Below, piece after piece: positions 4,091-23,131 of a stretch of 59,716 nt of DNA. Every line of letters starts with the position of its first letter. Position 1 is the stretch's first letter. The position numbers were made by a program, and so were the translations under genes. The notes beneath the pieces are model-generated. The model was not told where the DNA came from and ran no database searches. It worked only from the letters and a program-made list of their open reading frames with translations. Source of the DNA: a virus (taxonomy: Duplodnaviria; Caudoviricetes). Location of the stretch: IMG/VR virus record IMGVR_UViG_3300022752_000076, positions 1 through 59,716 of that record; one strand, 5' to 3'.

Positions 4091-4285
4091 ATGTCTAAAA
4101 TTGTCAATTACACGGCAGAGCTAGAACATCTTATAGTAAGCACCTTATTACCTGCATATGAAGATTACTGCAGGCGTTATCCATTTAGTCCACTAGCCAA
4201 AGAGATTAACTACGACATTGTTAGAGAAATTAAGCATACACGAGATTGTGGGGCGCTGCTCAAGCCTAGAAAAAATCTCACTTGA
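4091..4285 (+). CDS. hypothetical protein
   Basis: GGAGG SD; downstream of promoter. Confidence 0.7.
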   Translation: MSKIVNYTAELEHLIVSTLLPAYEDYCRRYPFSPLAKEINYDIVREIKHTRDCGALLKPRKNLT

Positions 4286-4310
4286 AAAGTTTTATGATAA
4301 AAGGTATAAT
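4282..4310 (+). promoter_or_regulatory. sigma70 promoter
   Basis: TTGAAA-17-TATAAT. Confidence 0.75.
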
Positions 4311-4338
4311 AGTAGTTCGGTTTAATTTTTAAGGTAAA

Positions 4339-4878
4339 TTGATGAAGAAAACAATTTTAAGTATTGCTATGGCTCTGGGATTTGGTACTGCACAAGCAGC
4401 GTGGATCAGTTATGATCTAGATAATGTAAAAGCAGATGCTAAAGGCGGCAGGGACAGTCAAGCACATTATATTCGTGCTGGCGGCGAAGTTATTGGACTA
4501 AATACAATGATGCAGGCTCGAACAGCTAGTTTTAGTGGCGGCGGCATGGTACACAGTGTAGAATTAACCGCAGGCAAGCCATTGGGTTTAGTTAGTCCAT
4601 TTGTTGGCATTGGTCACGATCTTGGATATAATGGAGCTAAAAGTTTTCAATACGGATTGTTAGGGGTTAGCGGTGGCATGCCTATTGGCAAATTATTTGC
4701 CTATGCTGGTGCTAAAACTCGCGTTAACTGGGACGATAACAACCCCAAGCAAACAGTAACTTTTATTGGTGTTAGCACGCCTATTACCAAACAGCTAAGT
4801 GCTAATTTTGGCATTAGCAAAAGTACGCAAGATATTAAGGAAACTGCTATTGGAGCAGGAGTACGCGTAAGTTTTTAA
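4339..4878 (+). CDS. outer-membrane beta-barrel protein
   Basis: Signal peptide ending AQA; alternating amphipathic strands; C-terminal GVRVSF with terminal Phe. Confidence 0.75.
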   Translation: MMKKTILSIAMALGFGTAQAAWISYDLDNVKADAKGGRDSQAHYIRAGGEVIGLNTMMQARTASFSGGGMVHSVELTAGKPLGLVSPFVGIGHDLGYNGAKSFQYGLLGVSGGMPIGKLFAYAGAKTRVNWDDNNPKQTVTFIGVSTPITKQLSANFGISKSTQDIKETAIGAGVRVSF

Positions 4879-6867: not shown

Positions 6868-6872
6868 TAATT

Positions 6873-6950
6873 GCCCATGTAACCCAATTGGTATGAGGTA
6901 CTTCGCTTAGAACGAAGGTCGTGTCAGTTCGAATCTGACCATGGGTACCA
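6873..6950 (+). tRNA. tRNA-Leu(UAG), short variable loop
   Basis: GCCCATG/CATGGGT acceptor; CTTCG-CTTAGAA-CGAAG; TTCGAAT; ACCA. Confidence 0.9.
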
Positions 6951-6961
6951 AAAATTTTAAA

Positions 6962-6990
6962 TTGAAAATTTGATATACACGTAGTATAAT
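6962..6990 (+). promoter_or_regulatory. sigma70 promoter of the HNH gene, embedded in a hairpin
   Basis: TTGAAA-17-TATAAT; CGTAGTAT/ATATTACG inverted repeat. Confidence 0.7.
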
Positions 6991-7015
6991 ATAAATATTA
7001 CGAAGGAATTTTAAA

Positions 7016-7678
7016 ATGTATGTATATCAAATATTAGATAAATTAAATTTGTTTTACGACGATGTAGCTAAGCAAAAACACGGAAATTGTCTAGAGATTA
7101 CCTATGGGCAATTAATAGAAAGAATTATAGAAAGTAATGGTAAAATACCGGCATTTAAATGCTTTCCAGAAATTGGTGAACAAACTTTTCATAGAGTTAT
7201 GAAAAGAAACTTTCCAGAAGTTAAATTAAACGGCGGCGAAGAAACTTGGTTTTACTATTTTTTGTCAATTATAGAGTACAAATTATGTGGTAAATGTAAT
7301 CAAATAAAGCCATACTCTGAATACTATAAAGATGTTAATAATATTTCTGGTATAACTAGTCACTGCAAAATTTGCAGAGCAGCTCAAGCCGAAGGAAGTT
7401 ATTCCAAATATTATGCCAGTCATCAAAAATCATACACTAAAAATGCTGGCAAAATTAAAGCTAGAAATGCTGTAGCTAAATTTAAAAGAAAACAACGAGC
7501 TGTTTCCTGGACAGAAACTGACGAAATTAATCAATTTTATGCAAATTGTCCACAAGGTTATCATGTTGACCATATCATACCTCTAATAGGTAAAACTGTT
7601 AGTGGTTTACATGTATTAGCAAATTTACAGTATTTACCTGCAAAAGAAAATTTTATTAAAGGAAACAGGTACGGTTAA
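7016..7678 (+). CDS. free-standing HNH homing endonuclease
   Basis: CGKC...CKIC Zn motif; YHVDHIIPL..VSGLHVLANLQYL..ENF; more AT-rich than flanks. Confidence 0.9.
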   Translation: MYVYQILDKLNLFYDDVAKQKHGNCLEITYGQLIERIIESNGKIPAFKCFPEIGEQTFHRVMKRNFPEVKLNGGEETWFYYFLSIIEYKLCGKCNQIKPYSEYYKDVNNISGITSHCKICRAAQAEGSYSKYYASHQKSYTKNAGKIKARNAVAKFKRKQRAVSWTETDEINQFYANCPQGYHVDHIIPLIGKTVSGLHVLANLQYLPAKENFIKGNRYG

Positions 7679-7712
7679 CGGCGTGGGAGTTCGAGTCTCG
7701 CCTGGGGCACCA
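7672..7712 (+). pseudogene. 3' half of a tRNA (probably Leu type: variable arm, T arm, acceptor strand, ACCA)
   Basis: ...TTAACGGCGT-GGGAG TTCGAGT CTCGC-CTGGGGC-ACCA with no matching 5' half upstream. Confidence 0.7.
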
Positions 7713-7718
7713 ATAACT

Positions 7719-7880
7719 ATGGAACAACAACAAACACTCTATGCAGTGCGAACAAAAATCTGTAATACTTGTAGTAGCTATAACAAGATTATGGATACCT
7801 GTCAGCAAACCGAAAAAATAGTTTCAATCTATAACAAACGAATAACTAATGGTTGCCCACTTAATCGTTGGCCACAATAA
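7719..7880 (+). CDS. small Cys-rich protein (DUF6171-like)
   Basis: R.KIC.TC......C...........K......CP..RW pattern. Confidence 0.6.
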   Translation: MEQQQTLYAVRTKICNTCSSYNKIMDTCQQTEKIVSIYNKRITNGCPLNRWPQ

Positions 7881-7882
7881 TA

Positions 7883-8899
7883 ATGCACACATTTGATATA
7901 CAACAACCACGCGTAGGTTTTGCTTGCAAGATTCAAACCGAGCATGACAAAGCCGATAAAAAATTAAATACAACTACTACAACACTAACATATCTTAACA
8001 AGCAAACTAAGGATAAAGCAGCAGAAAAAATCTGGACAATTATACACCACAACTGCGAAACACTGAAGCGACAGGTAGAGTGGGTTGGTAACCTGCCTAG
8101 GGATCAGCGTCAGTTTCGCATTAGCAGCGACCTATTTCCAGCTTATACACACGAAGACTGGATGTGGTTTTACTTTCAAAGTGATGTAGTTGCCTACCTA
8201 GAAAAACACCTAGGCAAAGTAGGCGATATTGCACGAGGCAAAGACGTACGCCTCAGTTTCCACCCTGGACAATTTTGTGTATTGGCAAGTGAAAATGATG
8301 GAATTGTTGATAACAGCATTGTTGAGTTTGAGTATCATACTGACATCGCCCGTTACATGGGCTATGGCCGTAAGTTTCAGGACTTTAAGTGTAATGTTCA
8401 TATTGGCGGCAAACGCGGGCCAGCTGGAATTATACAAGCGTGTAGTAAACTAAGTCCAGAAGCACGTAATATTATCACAATTGAAAATGCAGAATATACC
8501 TGGGGTCTAGAGCATAGTCTAGAACTCGTAGATCACTGTGCCCTAGTCCTAGACATACACCACCACTGGATATACAGCAAAGGAGAATACATTGAGCCTG
8601 ACGACAAGCGAATTAGACTGGTTAAAGATTCGTGGCGAGGTATTAGACCTGTTGTACACTATTCAGTATCCAGAGAAGATGTGCTTGTCGACCACACAGC
8701 AGACGAACTGCCCGACTACAAACTACTTACAAGCATGGGTTTTACGTCAGCTAAATTGCGAGCACATAGTGATTACTACTGGAACCACAGGGTAAATGAG
8801 TGGGCTGCTAGCCATAGTAGTTGGGCAGACATTATGTGCGAGAGTAAGCAGAAAAATCTTGCATCACGGGCATTTGTAAAATGGACGCAAAAATCCTAG
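7883..8899 (+). CDS. uvsE: UV damage endonuclease
   Basis: RVGFAC, FRISSDLFP, RLSFHPGQF, ITIEN, LVLDIHHH, HYS, RAHSD, MCESK.K motifs. Confidence 0.95.
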   Translation: MHTFDIQQPRVGFACKIQTEHDKADKKLNTTTTTLTYLNKQTKDKAAEKIWTIIHHNCETLKRQVEWVGNLPRDQRQFRISSDLFPAYTHEDWMWFYFQSDVVAYLEKHLGKVGDIARGKDVRLSFHPGQFCVLASENDGIVDNSIVEFEYHTDIARYMGYGRKFQDFKCNVHIGGKRGPAGIIQACSKLSPEARNIITIENAEYTWGLEHSLELVDHCALVLDIHHHWIYSKGEYIEPDDKRIRLVKDSWRGIRPVVHYSVSREDVLVDHTADELPDYKLLTSMGFTSAKLRAHSDYYWNHRVNEWAASHSSWADIMCESKQKNLASRAFVKWTQKS

Positions 8900-9039
8900 A
8901 AAGAATTTGTTACTATCTTGCCGAGAATATGTTATTACGACAAGATAGATTATACGAATTAGTTGAAAATGACATTGGTTGTACTAAAGAAGAATTTGAT
9001 TTAGTATTTCAACAAGTAGTACAGGCCTACACTAAGTAG
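8881..9039 (+). CDS. hypothetical protein (52 aa)
   Basis: Hand-translated MDAKILERICYYLAENMLL...; fills gap after uvsE. Confidence 0.55.
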   Translation: MDAKILERICYYLAENMLLRQDRLYELVENDIGCTKEEFDLVFQQVVQAYTK

Positions 9040-9040
9040 G

Positions 9041-9229
9041 CCGTATTGTGGTGCTCTTTGCTCGTAGCCGGATGAACCGGAACATTGCAGAGTCTGTTGT
9101 TAGCGAAGACCGGAATAGTAGCTAGTAATCGTGTCTGACCCTAAAGTATAGCAAACCGTCATGAAGTTATGTAAGTTTAGGGCACGGGCTTAGCGGCCTA
9201 GGTAGTAAACAGAGGGTACCACAATATGG
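9041..9229 (+). ncRNA. unassigned ~190-nt structured RNA
   Basis: 20-bp terminal helix (9041-9060/9210-9229) whose four non-WC positions are all G-U on the + strand; internal hairpins and a long interrupted stem 9121-9194. Confidence 0.75.
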
Positions 9230-9238
9230 AGGATTGAT

Positions 9239-9550
9239 ATGGACAGAATCTATGAACTAGAATTTTACAATACAATGATTAATGCTGTGCAAAAAGCCAA
9301 ACCTGGCACTGTAAAACGTGGAGATAGTGTTAGTTGGTCGTCAAGCGGTGGTACAGCTCGTGGTAAAATTACTAGAATAATTACCAGTGGTGAAGCAGAC
9401 ATACCTGGTAGTAGCTTTAAAATTACTGGCACACCTGAAGATCCTGGTGCGCTTATACGCGTCTATCAAAAGGATGGTGATGGCTATAAACCTAGCGATA
9501 CTATTGTTGGACATAAGGTTAAAACACTAACAAAAATAGATCCACTATAA
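9239..9550 (+). CDS. DUF2945/Hva1 Tudor-like protein
   Basis: KRGDSVSWSSSGGTARGKI...VGHK..TL. Confidence 0.7.
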   Translation: MDRIYELEFYNTMINAVQKAKPGTVKRGDSVSWSSSGGTARGKITRIITSGEADIPGSSFKITGTPEDPGALIRVYQKDGDGYKPSDTIVGHKVKTLTKIDPL

Positions 9551-14093: not shown

Positions 14094-14168
14094 GCTGAAT
14101 TAGCTCAGTGGTAGAGCAACCGCCTTGTAAGCGGTAGGTCATCAGTTCAAATCCGATATTCAGCACCA
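14094..14168 (+). tRNA. tRNA-Thr(UGU)
   Basis: GCTGAAT/ATTCAGC acceptor; ACCGC-CTTGTAA-GCGGT; ACCA. Confidence 0.95.
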
Positions 14169-14169
14169 A

Positions 14170-14496
14170 GTTATAGTTGTATGAAGCTAATAGAAAAGTA
14201 CTGCGGACGCGGGTTCGACTCCCGCCTGGTCCACCAGAAGTATATTGCACTTCACTGATAAGGAAGACTGGTCGGCTGTATTCAACTGGCTAGTGCAGTA
14301 TACTTCTGATGGGCCAGACATGGTTTCGACGGGGTAAAGAGTATTGTAGCAGACAACTCGGCAATGCAGAAGCTGTAGGGTTAGCACTAGCTAGCCGTAG
14401 ACGCAAACAAAATAAATGCCAACGATGAGGTATTTGCCTTAGCAGCATAAGCTAGGCTGGGGTTTAGGCGGTTGACCTTATTAGCCAACAACCGCC
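14170..14496 (+). ncRNA. ssrA: circularly permuted two-piece tmRNA; tag ANDEVFALAA
   Basis: Acceptor piece ends GGACGCGGGTTCGACTCCCGCCTGGTCCACCA (14236); spacer 14237-14310; coding piece starts GGGCCAG...TTCGAC (14311) giving G3-U70; tag ORF 14418-14450; 5' boundary approximate. Confidence 0.93.
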
Positions 14497-14520
14497 ACAC
14501 AACACAACCAAAGGATAAAT

Positions 14521-14730
14521 ATGGAACTAGAGTTTAAACATGCAGGTATGAGTGTTAGTTTTGAGTGTGATGGAGACGATCACTATGATCACGTTGATCT
14601 CCTACACAAGATCGCAGCTCTAGTTGAAGAGCTTGCCAGTCATACAGGCGTTAGTCTTGTAGTAATGAGCGACTATAAAGAATCAGATGAAGATGATAGT
14701 GAACAAGACGACAACAACTGGGAAGATTGA
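14521..14730 (+). CDS. small acidic hypothetical protein
   Basis: AAGGA SD; D/E-rich tail. Confidence 0.7.
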   Translation: MELEFKHAGMSVSFECDGDDHYDHVDLLHKIAALVEELASHTGVSLVVMSDYKESDEDDSEQDDNNWED

Positions 14731-18791: not shown

Positions 18792-19484
18792 ATGACAATA
18801 GGAATTTACTGTTTATCGTTTAATAATACTGATAAAGTATATATAGGAAAATCAATTACACTAGAAACTAGACTATATGTTCATTTATGGAATATGAGAA
18901 GGAATCAATCAGCAAAGAAACTACAAGAAGCCTATAATACATATGGCGAGCCAACTTTTAATATTCTTGTAGAATGTGCGGAACACGAAATATATAAATT
19001 AGAAAAATTTTATATTCAGGAGTTTGATTCTTATAATAATGGATTTAATACATCCCCAGGAGGAGAAGCAGGAAATATTTCACCTGGAGAATTAAATGCT
19101 AGAGCTACAAGTAGTAATAAGAATTACTTAGAAGCATTAAAATTATTAGTAACAACTAATTTAACTGGCGCGCAAATTGCAGAAATGACTAATTTATCTA
19201 AATCTATTATATCACATATTTCATCTGGCGAAGGACATAAATGGATGAAAGAAGCGGCTCCAGAATTGTATAATAAATTAATAGAAAATAAGAAAAATAG
19301 ACGAATTCGTACAAATAGTACAAAACGACCCTTTAATAAATTAAGAGCACCTGATGGCACAATTTATGATCTTACAGACGTAGGAGTTAATAACTTTTGT
19401 GAAAAGTACAATTTAAGCCCCTCTAAGGTATCATTAGTGCTTAATGGACGGGCTGATTCTACTAAAGGTTGGACACCAGTATAA
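18792..19484 (+). CDS. GIY-YIG homing endonuclease
   Basis: GIY...YIGKS, R...H, E, NGFN; C-terminal HTH and KGW DNA-binding module. Confidence 0.92.
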   Translation: MTIGIYCLSFNNTDKVYIGKSITLETRLYVHLWNMRRNQSAKKLQEAYNTYGEPTFNILVECAEHEIYKLEKFYIQEFDSYNNGFNTSPGGEAGNISPGELNARATSSNKNYLEALKLLVTTNLTGAQIAEMTNLSKSIISHISSGEGHKWMKEAAPELYNKLIENKKNRRIRTNSTKRPFNKLRAPDGTIYDLTDVGVNNFCEKYNLSPSKVSLVLNGRADSTKGWTPV

Positions 19485-19528: not shown

Positions 19529-20485
19529 ATGAATAAATTACATAAACTATTAGACAAAGCAAGTGAGGCCTACTATGCCGGTACGCCCACTATTCCAGAT
19601 TACATGTTTGATATGCTAGCAGAGGGTTGCGGCTATAACAAGGTTGGTGCAGCAGTACACGGCAACAAAGCCAAGCATACGCATCGCATGTATAGTCTGC
19701 AAAAGTTTTATGAAGATGAAGGTAAGGCCGACCCACTAGCAGGCCTAGACGTTACTACCAGCATTAAACTAGACGGTGCAGCTATTAGCCTATTATACGT
19801 AGACGGCGTACTAGTACAAGCGCTTACTCGTGGTGACGGCATTGAAGGTCAAGTTATCACAGATAAAATGTATGAGCACGGTAGCCTAGTACCACTAAGA
19901 ATTAATCTTGGTAATGTAACGGTGCAAATCACTGGCGAGATTGTAGCCCCACTGCACGTAGAAAATAGTCGTAACTATGCAGCAGGCAGCTTAAATCTCA
20001 AAGACTTGCAGGAGTTCAAAACCAGAGCAATTGAGTTCTTTGCCTATCAAATAACACCAAACCTAGACCCAACCTGGTCTGGTGATATGCGTGTGCTTAA
20101 ACAACTAGGATTTAACACTGTACTAGAACCTGAACTTGCCAAGATTTATCCTAGTGATGGCATTGTTGTTAGACTAAATAATAATCATCAGTTTGAACAA
20201 TTAGGCTATACTAGCAAGCATCCCCGTGGTGCATATGCACGCAAAGAACGTGCCGCCCATGTAGAAACTAAATTACTTGGCGTAGAATGGAATGTAGGCA
20301 AAACCGGCAAAGTAACACCAACAGCTATTCTAGAGCCAGTTAAAATTGGCGATGCTCTAGTAAGCCGAGCCACACTCAACAATCCTGGGTTTATCGAAGC
20401 ACTAGACCTACAGATTGGCGATACAGTGGCAGTTGTAAGAAGCGGAGAAATAATACCTTGCATACTACACAAGGTTGATGCCTAA
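19529..20485 (+). CDS. ligA: NAD-dependent DNA ligase subunit A (adenylation plus OB domain)
   Basis: KLDG, ALTRGDG, GEIV, SRNYAAG, DGIV, GKTGKVTP, RSGEIIP. Confidence 0.95.
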   Translation: MNKLHKLLDKASEAYYAGTPTIPDYMFDMLAEGCGYNKVGAAVHGNKAKHTHRMYSLQKFYEDEGKADPLAGLDVTTSIKLDGAAISLLYVDGVLVQALTRGDGIEGQVITDKMYEHGSLVPLRINLGNVTVQITGEIVAPLHVENSRNYAAGSLNLKDLQEFKTRAIEFFAYQITPNLDPTWSGDMRVLKQLGFNTVLEPELAKIYPSDGIVVRLNNNHQFEQLGYTSKHPRGAYARKERAAHVETKLLGVEWNVGKTGKVTPTAILEPVKIGDALVSRATLNNPGFIEALDLQIGDTVAVVRSGEIIPCILHKVDA

Positions 20486-20570: not shown

Positions 20571-21329
20571 ATGAAGATTGAAATACCCACACATTGTCCC
20601 TGTTGCAACTACAAACTAGAACTGGTTAACGATCAGTTGTTTTGTCGCAACCAGGCTTGTGATGCTCAACTTAGTAAGCGTGTAGAACACTTTTGCAAAA
20701 CTATGAACATCAAGGGTATGGGCGCAAAAACTATTGAAAAACTAGGATTAGCAGATATTACAGAGTTATACTACTTAGAATTAGATGAAGTCAGTGACTT
20801 ACTAGGTAGTATAAAAGTAGCAGAAAAACTCTTAGCAGAAATAGATAAAAGTCGCAGCGCTCCACTCAATCAAGTACTAGCAAGTTTTAGTATTCCACTA
20901 GTAGGTAATACGGCTAGCGCTAAGATTAGCGGTGTAGTTAGTCATATAGACGAAATTAACTTAGAAACTTGCAAACAAGCCGGACTAGGTGATAAAGTAA
21001 CACAAAATCTCCTAGGCTGGTTAGAACTGGATTTCAAAGAAATTAGAGAGTTTTTACCCTTTACATTTCGCAGTGAAACACCTGTGGCAAATACCACTGG
21101 ACCGGTGGTGTGTGTTACAGGTAAATTATCTTCTTATAAAACCAAAGCCGAAGCCTACAAGCAATTAACAGAACACGGATTTCGTATAAGCGAATCAGTA
21201 ACAAAAACTACGGATTATTTAGTTGACGAAGAAGATAAAAGTAGTACAAAACGTAAAAAAGCCGACACTCTCGGCATTAAAATTATCACAAACTTAAATA
21301 CTTTTTTAAGAGAACAAATCAATGACTGA
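20571..21329 (+). CDS. ligB: NAD-dependent DNA ligase subunit B (Zn finger, HhH, BRCT)
   Basis: PTHCPCC...FC.N..C, IKGMG, VCVTGKL, SVTKTTDYLV; split ligase as in T5. Confidence 0.93.
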   Translation: MKIEIPTHCPCCNYKLELVNDQLFCRNQACDAQLSKRVEHFCKTMNIKGMGAKTIEKLGLADITELYYLELDEVSDLLGSIKVAEKLLAEIDKSRSAPLNQVLASFSIPLVGNTASAKISGVVSHIDEINLETCKQAGLGDKVTQNLLGWLELDFKEIREFLPFTFRSETPVANTTGPVVCVTGKLSSYKTKAEAYKQLTEHGFRISESVTKTTDYLVDEEDKSSTKRKKADTLGIKIITNLNTFLREQIND

Positions 21330-22441: not shown

Positions 22442-23131
22442 ATGACTTCTGGTATATATGCGTTAGTATTTACTAATTGTGACCTAATATATATAGGCCA
22501 ATCTATTAATATTGAAAAAAGATTCAAAGAACATATATATTCGTTTAATAGAGGCGACGCTAATAAAAAATTATTAGAAGCATATAAAACATACAATACG
22601 CCAGAATTATTTATTTTGGAAGAAACCTGCCAAGATTTAGATTCTTTAGAGCTGCATTATATATCAAAATTTGATACTGTAAAAAATGGCTTAAATGAAT
22701 GGGCCGGGCCAATAAAAGTATTACGTGGGCAGGCACATCCAAATAGTAAATATACGAACAAACAAATAGAAGATATAATTATACTACTTTCGTCAGATGA
22801 AATATTGTCTTTCAAAGAAATAGCTAAGATAGTAAATGTGCCTATTTCTACAGTACAAAATGTATCCTCGGGAAAAGTTGGCTCACATTTAAAAAATTCT
22901 TTTCCTAAAGAATATACTATTTTAGAAAATAGACGGAATAATAGAATTTCGGAGGCTAGTTCCGCTAGAGGACGAGGTATATCTTACCCTATAATATTAT
23001 CACCTAATGGCGAAGAATATAACATAGAAAATATCACTAAATTTGCAGAAAAATGGGGACTAAATAGGAGTCACCTATGCGGAGTATTAAATGGTGTTAG
23101 AAAATCGCACAAAGGGTGGAGGCTTAAATAA
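22442..23131 (+). CDS. GIY-YIG homing endonuclease (paralogue of 18792-19484)
   Basis: SGIY...YIGQS, R...H, NGLN; SPNGEEY...KSHKGW C-terminus. Confidence 0.92.
   Translation: MTSGIYALVFTNCDLIYIGQSINIEKRFKEHIYSFNRGDANKKLLEAYKTYNTPELFILEETCQDLDSLELHYISKFDTVKNGLNEWAGPIKVLRGQAHPNSKYTNKQIEDIIILLSSDEILSFKEIAKIVNVPISTVQNVSSGKVGSHLKNSFPKEYTILENRRNNRISEASSARGRGISYPIILSPNGEEYNIENITKFAEKWGLNRSHLCGVLNGVRKSHKGWRLK

Follow-up and report, generated by a model that had tools for sequence, protein, structure and literature searches.

What is encoded by the roughly 190 nucleotides (nt) at positions 9041-9229 of the IMG/VR virus record IMGVR_UViG_3300022752_000076 (Duplodnaviria; Caudoviricetes), and what could it do for the phage that carries it? 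The stretch analyzed, referred to here as the window, is 59,716 nt long with a completeness estimate of 56%, and an earlier note made from its letters had marked these positions as an unassigned, highly structured RNA gene. We regard it as near certain that the locus encodes a real, conserved and complex-folded phage RNA, and comparison of its relatives establishes the predicted fold as a five-way junction, formed by a closing helix, P1, and four hairpins, P2-P5. Judging from these sequences, the element is probably a non-coding RNA that is stable and acts in trans, from a family so far missing from Rfam, and it would assemble through self-pairing of L3 and L4, the palindromic loops of its two long arms.

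A conserved RNA family with a five-way junction

First of all, the two strands of the region differ in their predicted folding. For the + strand of 9036-9234 the folding energy is -65.7 kcal/mol (z -2.81), matched by none of 200 shuffles, compared with -46.4 kcal/mol (z -1.28) and 22/200 shuffles for the - strand. Second, the element has many relatives. Homologues of both flanking proteins led to 153 viral loci, in which blastn found nine full-length copies at 83-93% identity, plus some partial matches. The 10 closest copies were aligned with MAFFT, and a covariance model, R1, built from the RNAalifold consensus of this alignment matched far more distant contigs over the full length of the RNA, at 55-101 bits. 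Model scores show the same strand preference, with 55-240 bits on the + strand and at most 36 bits on the - strand. Two pattern scans of the viral collection, one of them anchored on the TGCTMG motif of junction J1/2, yielded together with the model 47 matches with 42 distinct sequences. One metagenome scan returned 113 stretches; 80 of these loci went through a model R2, which 72 pass at E up to 1e-10, providing 61 distinct sequences, 54 of them new. The total is 93 distinct sequences, viral and metagenomic, with a rearranged group (the L100 group, described below) left out. A further 130 UvdE or Tudor loci contributed nothing beyond L081, L175 (cut off) and the L100 group. In all five genomes that are 94-100% complete, the RNA is present in a single copy.

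Third, the relatives agree on one structure, which differs from the fold of the single sequence. RNAalifold on the MAFFT alignment of 10 close members gives a consensus of 57 pairs, 13 of them with compensatory changes. In the viral set (33 distinct sequences), 94.2% of the cells are paired, compared with 36.7-41.4% when the pairing partners are slid, and 47/57 pairs show compensatory changes; in the metagenome set (61 distinct sequences), the values are 94.8%, 34.0-42.6% and 46/57. None of 500 shuffles reaches this in either set. The structural signal is taken to be real because of the MAFFT-based result and the slid controls. In the metagenome set all 14 modelled pairs of P3 are compensatory; in P5 the two closing pairs are constant and four others are compensatory. 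The junction strands TGCTMG, YTTGCA and GGYAGTAAAC, as well as CTTAGCGG of P5, are nearly invariant. Among 88 full-length sequences the total length is 189-199 nt, with 47-51 nt for the P3 arm, 39-42 nt for the P4 arm and 21-22 nt for the P5 arm. The P3 and P4 arms tend to lengthen jointly, with (50, 42) in 38 sequences and (47, 39-40) in 36, a tendency that is confounded by descent. A pseudoknot between J1/2 (GCTA/GCTC) and the P5 loop (TAGC) is possible; both sides are invariant, and L032 is without the J1/2 motif. A column-covariation search for tertiary pairs was swamped by subgroup structure and was not used.

Against this consensus, parts of the structure drawn in the earlier note hold and parts do not. 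The 20-base-pair (bp) helix between 9041-9060 and 9210-9229 is borne out, with all four of its non-Watson-Crick pairs being G-U on the + strand; what had been called terminal repeats are merely its two strands. Covariation upholds the short hairpin at 9068-9080 as P2, and it keeps the CCCTAAA/TTTAGGG segment of the long interior stem, whereas for GCTAG/TTAGC and TCGTG/CACGG the family backs other helices. A further hairpin proposed at 9092-9110 has no family support either; covariation favours P3 and the separate hairpin P5 in place of these pairings. This hairpin and the two replaced segments are possible in the single sequence and are present in its minimum-free-energy fold. The broader proposal of a stable, structured phage RNA outside Rfam is backed by the covariation, by the strand asymmetry of the model scores, by the position in transfer RNA (tRNA) arrays described below and by zero Rfam matches.

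The searches for a known family agree in this. Rfam 15 (4227 models) gives eight gathering-score matches in the window, all of them tRNAs or a transfer-messenger RNA (tmRNA) elsewhere, and none in 8850-9400 at E up to 10. In five loci with divergent members, searched at E up to 5, only flanking tRNAs match near the RNA. ARAGORN calls eight genes in the window, none at 9041-9229, and together with Rfam this agrees with the statement that the pattern is not that of a tRNA, a tmRNA or a signal recognition particle RNA. As regards YrlA, a bacterial Y RNA with a tRNA-like module and an Ro/Rsr partner, Rfam gave no match and the P2 loop varies among members. Searches with three members by blastn in GenBank phage records gave no match, and a pattern scan of prokaryotes (one genome per species) gave five pattern matches, none of which passes the model. 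R2 finds no credible copy in phages T5, KKP_3711 and pVp-1; its matches there, a hairpin-like one of 50 nt (21.7 bits) and one of 12 bits overlapping an annotated coding sequence, were rejected as members. Members have so far been found only in viral or metagenome contigs, that is, in uncultivated phages. Full-text searches of the literature found no description of the family, which may sit unnamed among the 8,495 unnamed candidate RNAs from IMG/VR catalogued in PMC10690425, a source available here without its supplements.

Palindromic loops and proposed self-assembly

What is new in this family is that L3 and L4 stay self-complementary while their palindromes switch kind. L4 is 9 nt long in all 93 distinct sequences, and in 86 of them a perfect 6-nt palindrome stands at offset 2, as TCATGA (the window), TAATTA or TCGCGA. 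L3 holds a perfect palindrome of at least 6 nt in 53/93 sequences and of at least 4 nt in 93/93. Its hexamers occupy one place and depend on the lineage: CCCGGG, CCTAGG (sometimes TCCTAGGA), TCTAGA, TCCGGA, CACGTG, CTCGAG, ACTAGT (as TTACTAGTAA) and TGTACA, the last of which belongs to a window-type loop with a perfect hexamer exactly where the window has ACCGGA. Counted as distinct loops, 19 of 23 L3 loops contain a 6-nt palindrome (mean 4.1 and maximum 11 in 3000 shuffles), as do 8 of 10 L4 loops (mean 1.2, maximum 6, again in 3000 shuffles), while the control loop L2 has none in 15 (shuffled mean 0.11, maximum 2). On a tree of 43 rows computed without the loop columns, with L100, L102, L104 and the truncated L204 left out, the kind of L3 changes at least eight times and that of L4 at least four times. 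Each switch between perfect palindromes needs paired substitutions.

What do these palindromes pair with? Pairing partners in cis fare poorly. A second copy of the L3 hexamer within the same RNA was never found in the 93 sequences. Pairing of L3 with CTAG of J1/2 was rejected: 6/9 kinds of L3 (ACTAGT, CACGTG, CCCGGG, CCTAGG, TCCGGA and TCTAGA) occur with both the CTAG and the CTCG form of the junction, and the kinds CCGG, CTCGAG and TGTACA occur with the CTCG form only. Pairing of L3 with L4 was also rejected, the two not being complementary, and pairing of the P2 loop with L4 is unsupported, since close relatives alter the P2 loop and nothing else changes. Because adjacent nucleotides of one loop cannot pair with each other and the cis alternatives fail, each loop would contact the same loop of another copy. 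Self-pairing of L3 and of L4 between copies is thus the simplest reading of these sequences.

Two such contacts, each two-fold and orthogonal to the other, would allow either a dimer or a dihedral closed assembly. With L3 and L4 each kissing the same loop of another copy, the outcome would be a head-to-head homodimer, in which both loops are engaged by the same partner, or a closed dihedral homo-oligomer. We speculate that the assembled particle rather than the base sequence is the working unit, and that it could scaffold a host or phage factor or act as a sponge for it, as has been proposed for ROOL, GOLLD and manA. The coordinates of the RNA, its helices and loops and its neighbours are collected in Table 1.

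Table 1. Features of the RNA locus and its surroundings in the window
Feature	Position	Strand	Remarks
RNA gene	9041..9229	+	covariance-model match 9038-9231; five-way junction P1-P5 (predicted); 230.3 bits (R1), 187.3 bits (R2)
P1 5' strand	9041..9060	+	20-bp closing helix with 9210-9229, four G-U; 15/19 modelled pairs change on both sides
J1/2 junction	9059..9067	+	conserved TGCTMG motif, from alignment listings
P2 hairpin CCGG/CCGG	9068..9080	+	pairs 9068-9071/9077-9080; 3/4 pairs compensatory (viral set); loop variable, not palindromic
P3 arm	9088..9137	+	pairs 9088-9091/9134-9137, 9094/9131, 9096-9104/9121-9129; loop L3 9105-9120
L3 core CCGG	9110..9113	+	in ACCGGA, where other members have a perfect 6-nt palindrome
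P4 arm	9140..9181	+	pairs 9140-9145/9176-9181, 9147/9174, 9151-9153/9170-9172, 9154-9156/9166-9168; covariation; loop L4 9157-9165
L4 palindrome TCATGA	9159..9164	+	9-nt loop, layout 2 + 6 + 1 nt
P5 hairpin	9182..9203	+	pairs 9182-9183/9202-9203, 9186-9190/9195-9199; CTTAGCGG: TAGC loop closed by U-G and C-G
J5/1 junction	9201..9210	+	conserved GGYAGTAAAC motif, from alignment listings
P1 3' strand	9210..9229	+	last two G enter the ribosome-binding site of the next gene
P0, 7-bp hairpin	9024..9042	+	window's subgroup only; spans the stop codon of the 52-aa ORF; shares C9041-C9042 with P1
UvdE	7868-8899		upstream of the RNA; Pfam scan
52-aa ORF	8881..9039	+	no Pfam match; absent from one relative
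Tudor-like gene (Pfam Hva1_TUDOR)	9239..9550	+	neighbour in this subgroup only
aa, amino acids; ORF, open reading frame.

Position within tRNA arrays

Outside the window's own subgroup, the RNA is embedded in arrays that contain a tmRNA and as many as 25 tRNA genes. In 20 of the 42 distinct viral sequences an upstream tRNA, which is tRNA-Pro(UGG) in 17 and tRNA-Leu(UAG) in three, ends at most 6 nt from the start of P1, and P1 usually takes its first three nucleotides from the CCA of the upstream tRNA-Pro. On the downstream side, 15/42 have a tRNA (Leu-UAG, Ala-UGC or Tyr) that starts at most 6 nt from the end of P1, and 22/42 abut a tRNA gene on one side or the other. The RNA would thus be co-transcribed with the tRNAs and, in most lineages, cut out by the enzymes that mature the tRNAs flanking it, its 5' end being shared with the CCA of tRNA-Pro and the next tRNA beginning at the end of P1 or a few nucleotides from it. 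A stable RNA processed together with tRNAs is the likely product.

The element that follows the RNA varies between lineages, being a tRNA, an ORF of 55-62 aa, a basic ORF of 42 aa or the Tudor-like gene. The last is directly 3' in the window and its nine closest relatives, and here the description in the earlier note is accurate: the product of 9239-9550 matches Pfam Hva1_TUDOR (E 7.2e-8), and G9228 and G9229 of P1 run into the Shine-Dalgarno sequence GGAGG ahead of the ATG at 9239. In contrast, none of 18 loci found by the RNA pattern alone (4.6-15 kb per locus) carries a Tudor-like gene, while 15 of the 18 have UvdE 0.4-3 kb upstream, with other genes between. The variable 3' neighbour and the absence of the Tudor-like gene from these 18 loci therefore argue against a leader or riboswitch and against a partnership with the Tudor-like protein. 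A riboswitch or cis-regulatory leader was accordingly rejected as a candidate, the downstream element being tRNA-Leu, tRNA-Ala, tRNA-Tyr, the Tudor-like gene or one of two unrelated small ORFs.

Concerning the small ORFs themselves, the one of 55-62 aa has its ATG within the 3' strand of P1 (L186, L110, L191, L171, L163, L169 and L164), and the very basic one of 42 aa starts 3 nt past the RNA (L033 and L025, with the same start in L088, L024 and L028). P1 may limit translation of both.

On the upstream side, the window's subgroup has an additional hairpin, P0, where other lineages have the 3' end of tRNA-Pro. P0 forms in 8/8 subgroup members tried, with compensating changes in L003 and L011; these are single folds, as RNAalifold on the ungapped P0 alignment, which has a 2-nt register shift, gave no structure. 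A metatranscriptome contig of a relative (run X15) joins 8862 straight to 9037, which shows that the 52-aa ORF can be dispensed with and that the model sets the left edge of the module correctly. Metatranscriptome contigs of relatives skip 8863-9036, which holds this ORF, and also 6868-7680, which holds a tRNA-Leu(UAG) and an HNH-like ORF (7016-7678), and both stretches look like insertions or deletions of mobile modules.

As to transcription, the RNA is covered by contigs in 4/4 metatranscriptome runs, contigs that may include DNA. In two runs the bin holding the RNA ranks first of 30 in summed depth, equalling or exceeding the tmRNA bin; for contig data, this is a hint only.

Two kinds of atypical member were also seen. 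The L100 group (L100 at 4201-4397, L102 and L104) is a distant variant, scoring about 40 bits with R2, that lies between tRNA-Leu(UAG) and tRNA-Tyr. Its CTTAGCGG hairpin is nested in the P4 arm, its last hairpin has a GTAA loop, and its L3 carries the 8-nt palindrome CCGGCCGG. L081 (1635-1782) is a member of 148 nt without the P3 arm and part of P4, and yet it scores 104 bits; it has, at the point of fusion, the 10-nt palindrome TTACTAGTAA and may represent either a minimal version that occurs in nature or a copy in decay.

Weighing self-assembly against the alternatives

Several observations weigh against a self-assembling, trans-acting RNA. The case for oligomerization is drawn from the loop palindromes alone, and these are imperfect in part of the family. 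Seven of the 93 L4 loops are without a perfect hexamer, with TCATAA in one, TAATTG in 3 + 1 and TCGAGA in two, and TAATTG is self-complementary only with wobble pairs. In the window's own subgroup, which makes up 40 of the 93 distinct sequences, L3 has only the 4-nt CCGG core with A-A flanks. The window copy lies between two ORFs with no flanking tRNA and has no promoter or terminator of its own, which leaves its release from messenger RNA unexplained. Alignments A4-A6 were fitted to the model, a procedure that favours the structure of that model. Finally, metatranscriptome contigs cannot rank expression and may contain DNA; their gaps and depth rank were not used.

Within the self-assembly reading, a more specific version is possible, although we consider it rather unlikely: the RNA could be the protomer of a closed, RNA-only ring or cage, with L3-L3' and L4-L4' contacts made to different neighbours under dihedral symmetry, and would then represent an independent self-assembling phage RNA family, the smallest one made purely of two-fold kissing contacts. 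The fixed place in tRNA arrays would in that case suggest that the particles act on tRNA biology during infection, perhaps by protecting phage tRNAs or by sequestering a host factor directed against them.

A lesser chance is given to the view that the element serves the tRNA operon as a structured spacer or acts on it in cis, organizing tRNA processing or occluding the start of the next ORF, with no function in trans. The overlap of P1 with the CCA end of tRNA-Pro on one side and the first bases of the following tRNA on the other would fit such a role, as would the ORF starts found from -5 to +8 of the end of P1 in three lineages (Tudor-like, 55-62-aa and 42-aa) and the window copy without its own promoter or terminator. 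The downstream partner nevertheless differs by lineage (tRNA-Leu, tRNA-Ala, tRNA-Tyr or three unrelated ORFs), and a spacer needs neither five helices with fixed arms nor invariant junction strands nor two covarying palindromic loops.

It is slightly less probable again that the RNA is a monomeric protein-binding RNA, acting as decoy or cofactor, with the palindromic loops as sites for a dimeric phage or host protein. Proteins or ligands could bind at the conserved single-stranded motifs of the junction, and an oligomer has yet to be observed; but nine L3 and three to four L4 sequences that share only their self-complementarity are more than a sequence-specific protein would tolerate. Nor is there a conserved protein neighbour, with UvdE, in 15/18 loci, separated from the RNA by genes and the Tudor gene in 0/18.

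A ribozyme, for example a self-excising one with its active site in the invariant junction nucleotides, appears improbable. It would account for the invariant sequence of the junction and of the P5 loop, and the window's subgroup, lacking flanking tRNAs, needs some other route of release; against this, no self-cleaving family of Rfam matches even at E up to 10, and where tRNAs flank the RNA, tRNA processing already sets both ends.

The candidates of the earlier note, a 6S-sized decoy of RNA polymerase, a retron-like decoy of a host defence complex or a partner of the Tudor-like protein, retain hardly any likelihood: the size of about 190 nt and the Tudor-like gene that directly follows in the window and nine closest relatives speak for them, but the fold is a predicted five-way junction rather than a rod with a central bubble, no 6S model matches, no reverse transcriptase was found among 25 ORFs scanned against Pfam (part of the ORFs of the window), and adjacency to the Tudor-like gene is lost outside one subgroup.

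Comparison with known RNAs and significance

Self-assembly of a stable phage RNA that acts in trans is the preferred explanation. The systems nearest to this RNA are analogues, not relatives. The tRNA cluster of phage T4 contains small stable RNAs of unknown function that are located and processed together with tRNAs. The packaging RNA of phi29, a small podovirus, has about 170 nt and multimerizes by loop-loop pairing, through non-palindromic loop pairs; its Rfam model has no match in the window. In the dimerization-initiation hairpin of human immunodeficiency virus 1 (HIV-1), a 9-nt loop has its 6-nt palindrome in the centre, with 2 nt on one side and 1 nt on the other. L4 has the same layout, an analogy of motif only, as the HIV-1 hairpin lies within the viral genome and is not a separate RNA gene.

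Closer in setting are ROOL and GOLLD, which are described in PMC12286853 as phage or prophage RNAs, often beside tRNA islands, with no known protein partner, that form kissing-loop homo-oligomers seen by cryo-electron microscopy (a D4 8-mer and a D7 14-mer). The present RNA is likewise phage-encoded and adjoins tRNA genes (in 22/42 distinct viral members). Unlike ROOL and GOLLD, which at roughly 600-800+ nt are about 3-4 times longer, it has 189-199 nt and no sequence or model similarity to them, and whereas their oligomers have been observed, its assembly is deduced from loop palindromes. The same paper reports for loops L9.3 of OLE and L21a of GOLLD that covariation from palindrome to palindrome was taken as an interchain contact and agreed with cryo-electron microscopy. 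OLE is described there as a symmetric homodimer that includes such a palindromic, covarying kissing loop; it differs in being bacterial, about 600 nt long and provided with protein partners, and does not come from phages.

Closest in size is the manA motif RNA (RF01745), which is described in bioRxiv 10.64898/2026.07.01.735769 as a putative element of 5' untranslated regions in cyanophages and Photobacterium and is reported to form 8-, 10- and 60-mer cages via kissing loops. Like the present RNA, it is phage-associated, below 200 nt and built of multiple helices, and its apical loops make intermolecular kissing contacts. In that account, manA kisses between different loops (L5-L7' and L8-L9'), building pentamers, whereas here both loops are self-complementary and would make two-fold contacts. 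RF01745 has no match at permissive Rfam thresholds.

The family is new, although there are precedents for its likely principle, that of a self-assembling phage RNA linked to tRNA arrays. Work of 2025-2026 on ROOL, GOLLD and manA showed that phage RNAs build symmetric RNA-only assemblies, with few families available. The RNA described here is short and easily synthesized, its 93 distinct natural sequences are ready variants, and these sequences point with unusual clarity to two separate symmetric interfaces. Its tie to tRNAs is precise as well, the RNA following tRNA-Pro in 17/42 distinct viral sequences. The family offers a second angle on why phages put such RNAs among tRNAs. Should the RNA prove to be monomeric, it would still be a well-supported new family of complex-folded phage RNA.

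Carrier phages and further observations

The carriers are uncultivated, distantly T5-like freshwater phages of about 100 kb. The window encodes a family-A DNA polymerase, which is 48% identical to those of Demerecviridae (T5-like phages), together with a DnaB-like helicase, SbcCD-like proteins, a class II ribonucleotide reductase, an NAD-dependent ligase in two ORFs and several homing-endonuclease-like ORFs. DNA runs holding the region are labelled lake, freshwater, reservoir, aquaculture, drinking water and wastewater.

A permuted, two-piece tmRNA lies at 14094-14541 (Rfam tmRNA_permuted 117.7 bits, beta_tmRNA 103.1 bits), with the tag ANDEVFALAA; the match to the beta type is a weak hint of a betaproteobacterial host. 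A tRNA-Thr called by ARAGORN at 14094-14168 overlaps the start of this tmRNA and is not among the Rfam tRNA matches, and in the relatives L191, L171 and L025 a tRNA-Thr stands immediately before the tmRNA. In L015 (2775-2875), ARAGORN also calls a tRNA of 101 nt whose anticodon has four bases (tacc) and, in many arrays, unusually long tRNA-Ile(UAU) genes of 92 nt, for example in L160 (9229-9320). Finally, the NAD-dependent DNA ligase of the window appears split, with the adenylation and OB domains at 19529-20485 and BRCT in the next ORF at 20571-21329, and it is flanked by GIY-YIG endonuclease-like ORFs at 18792-19484 and 22442-23131.

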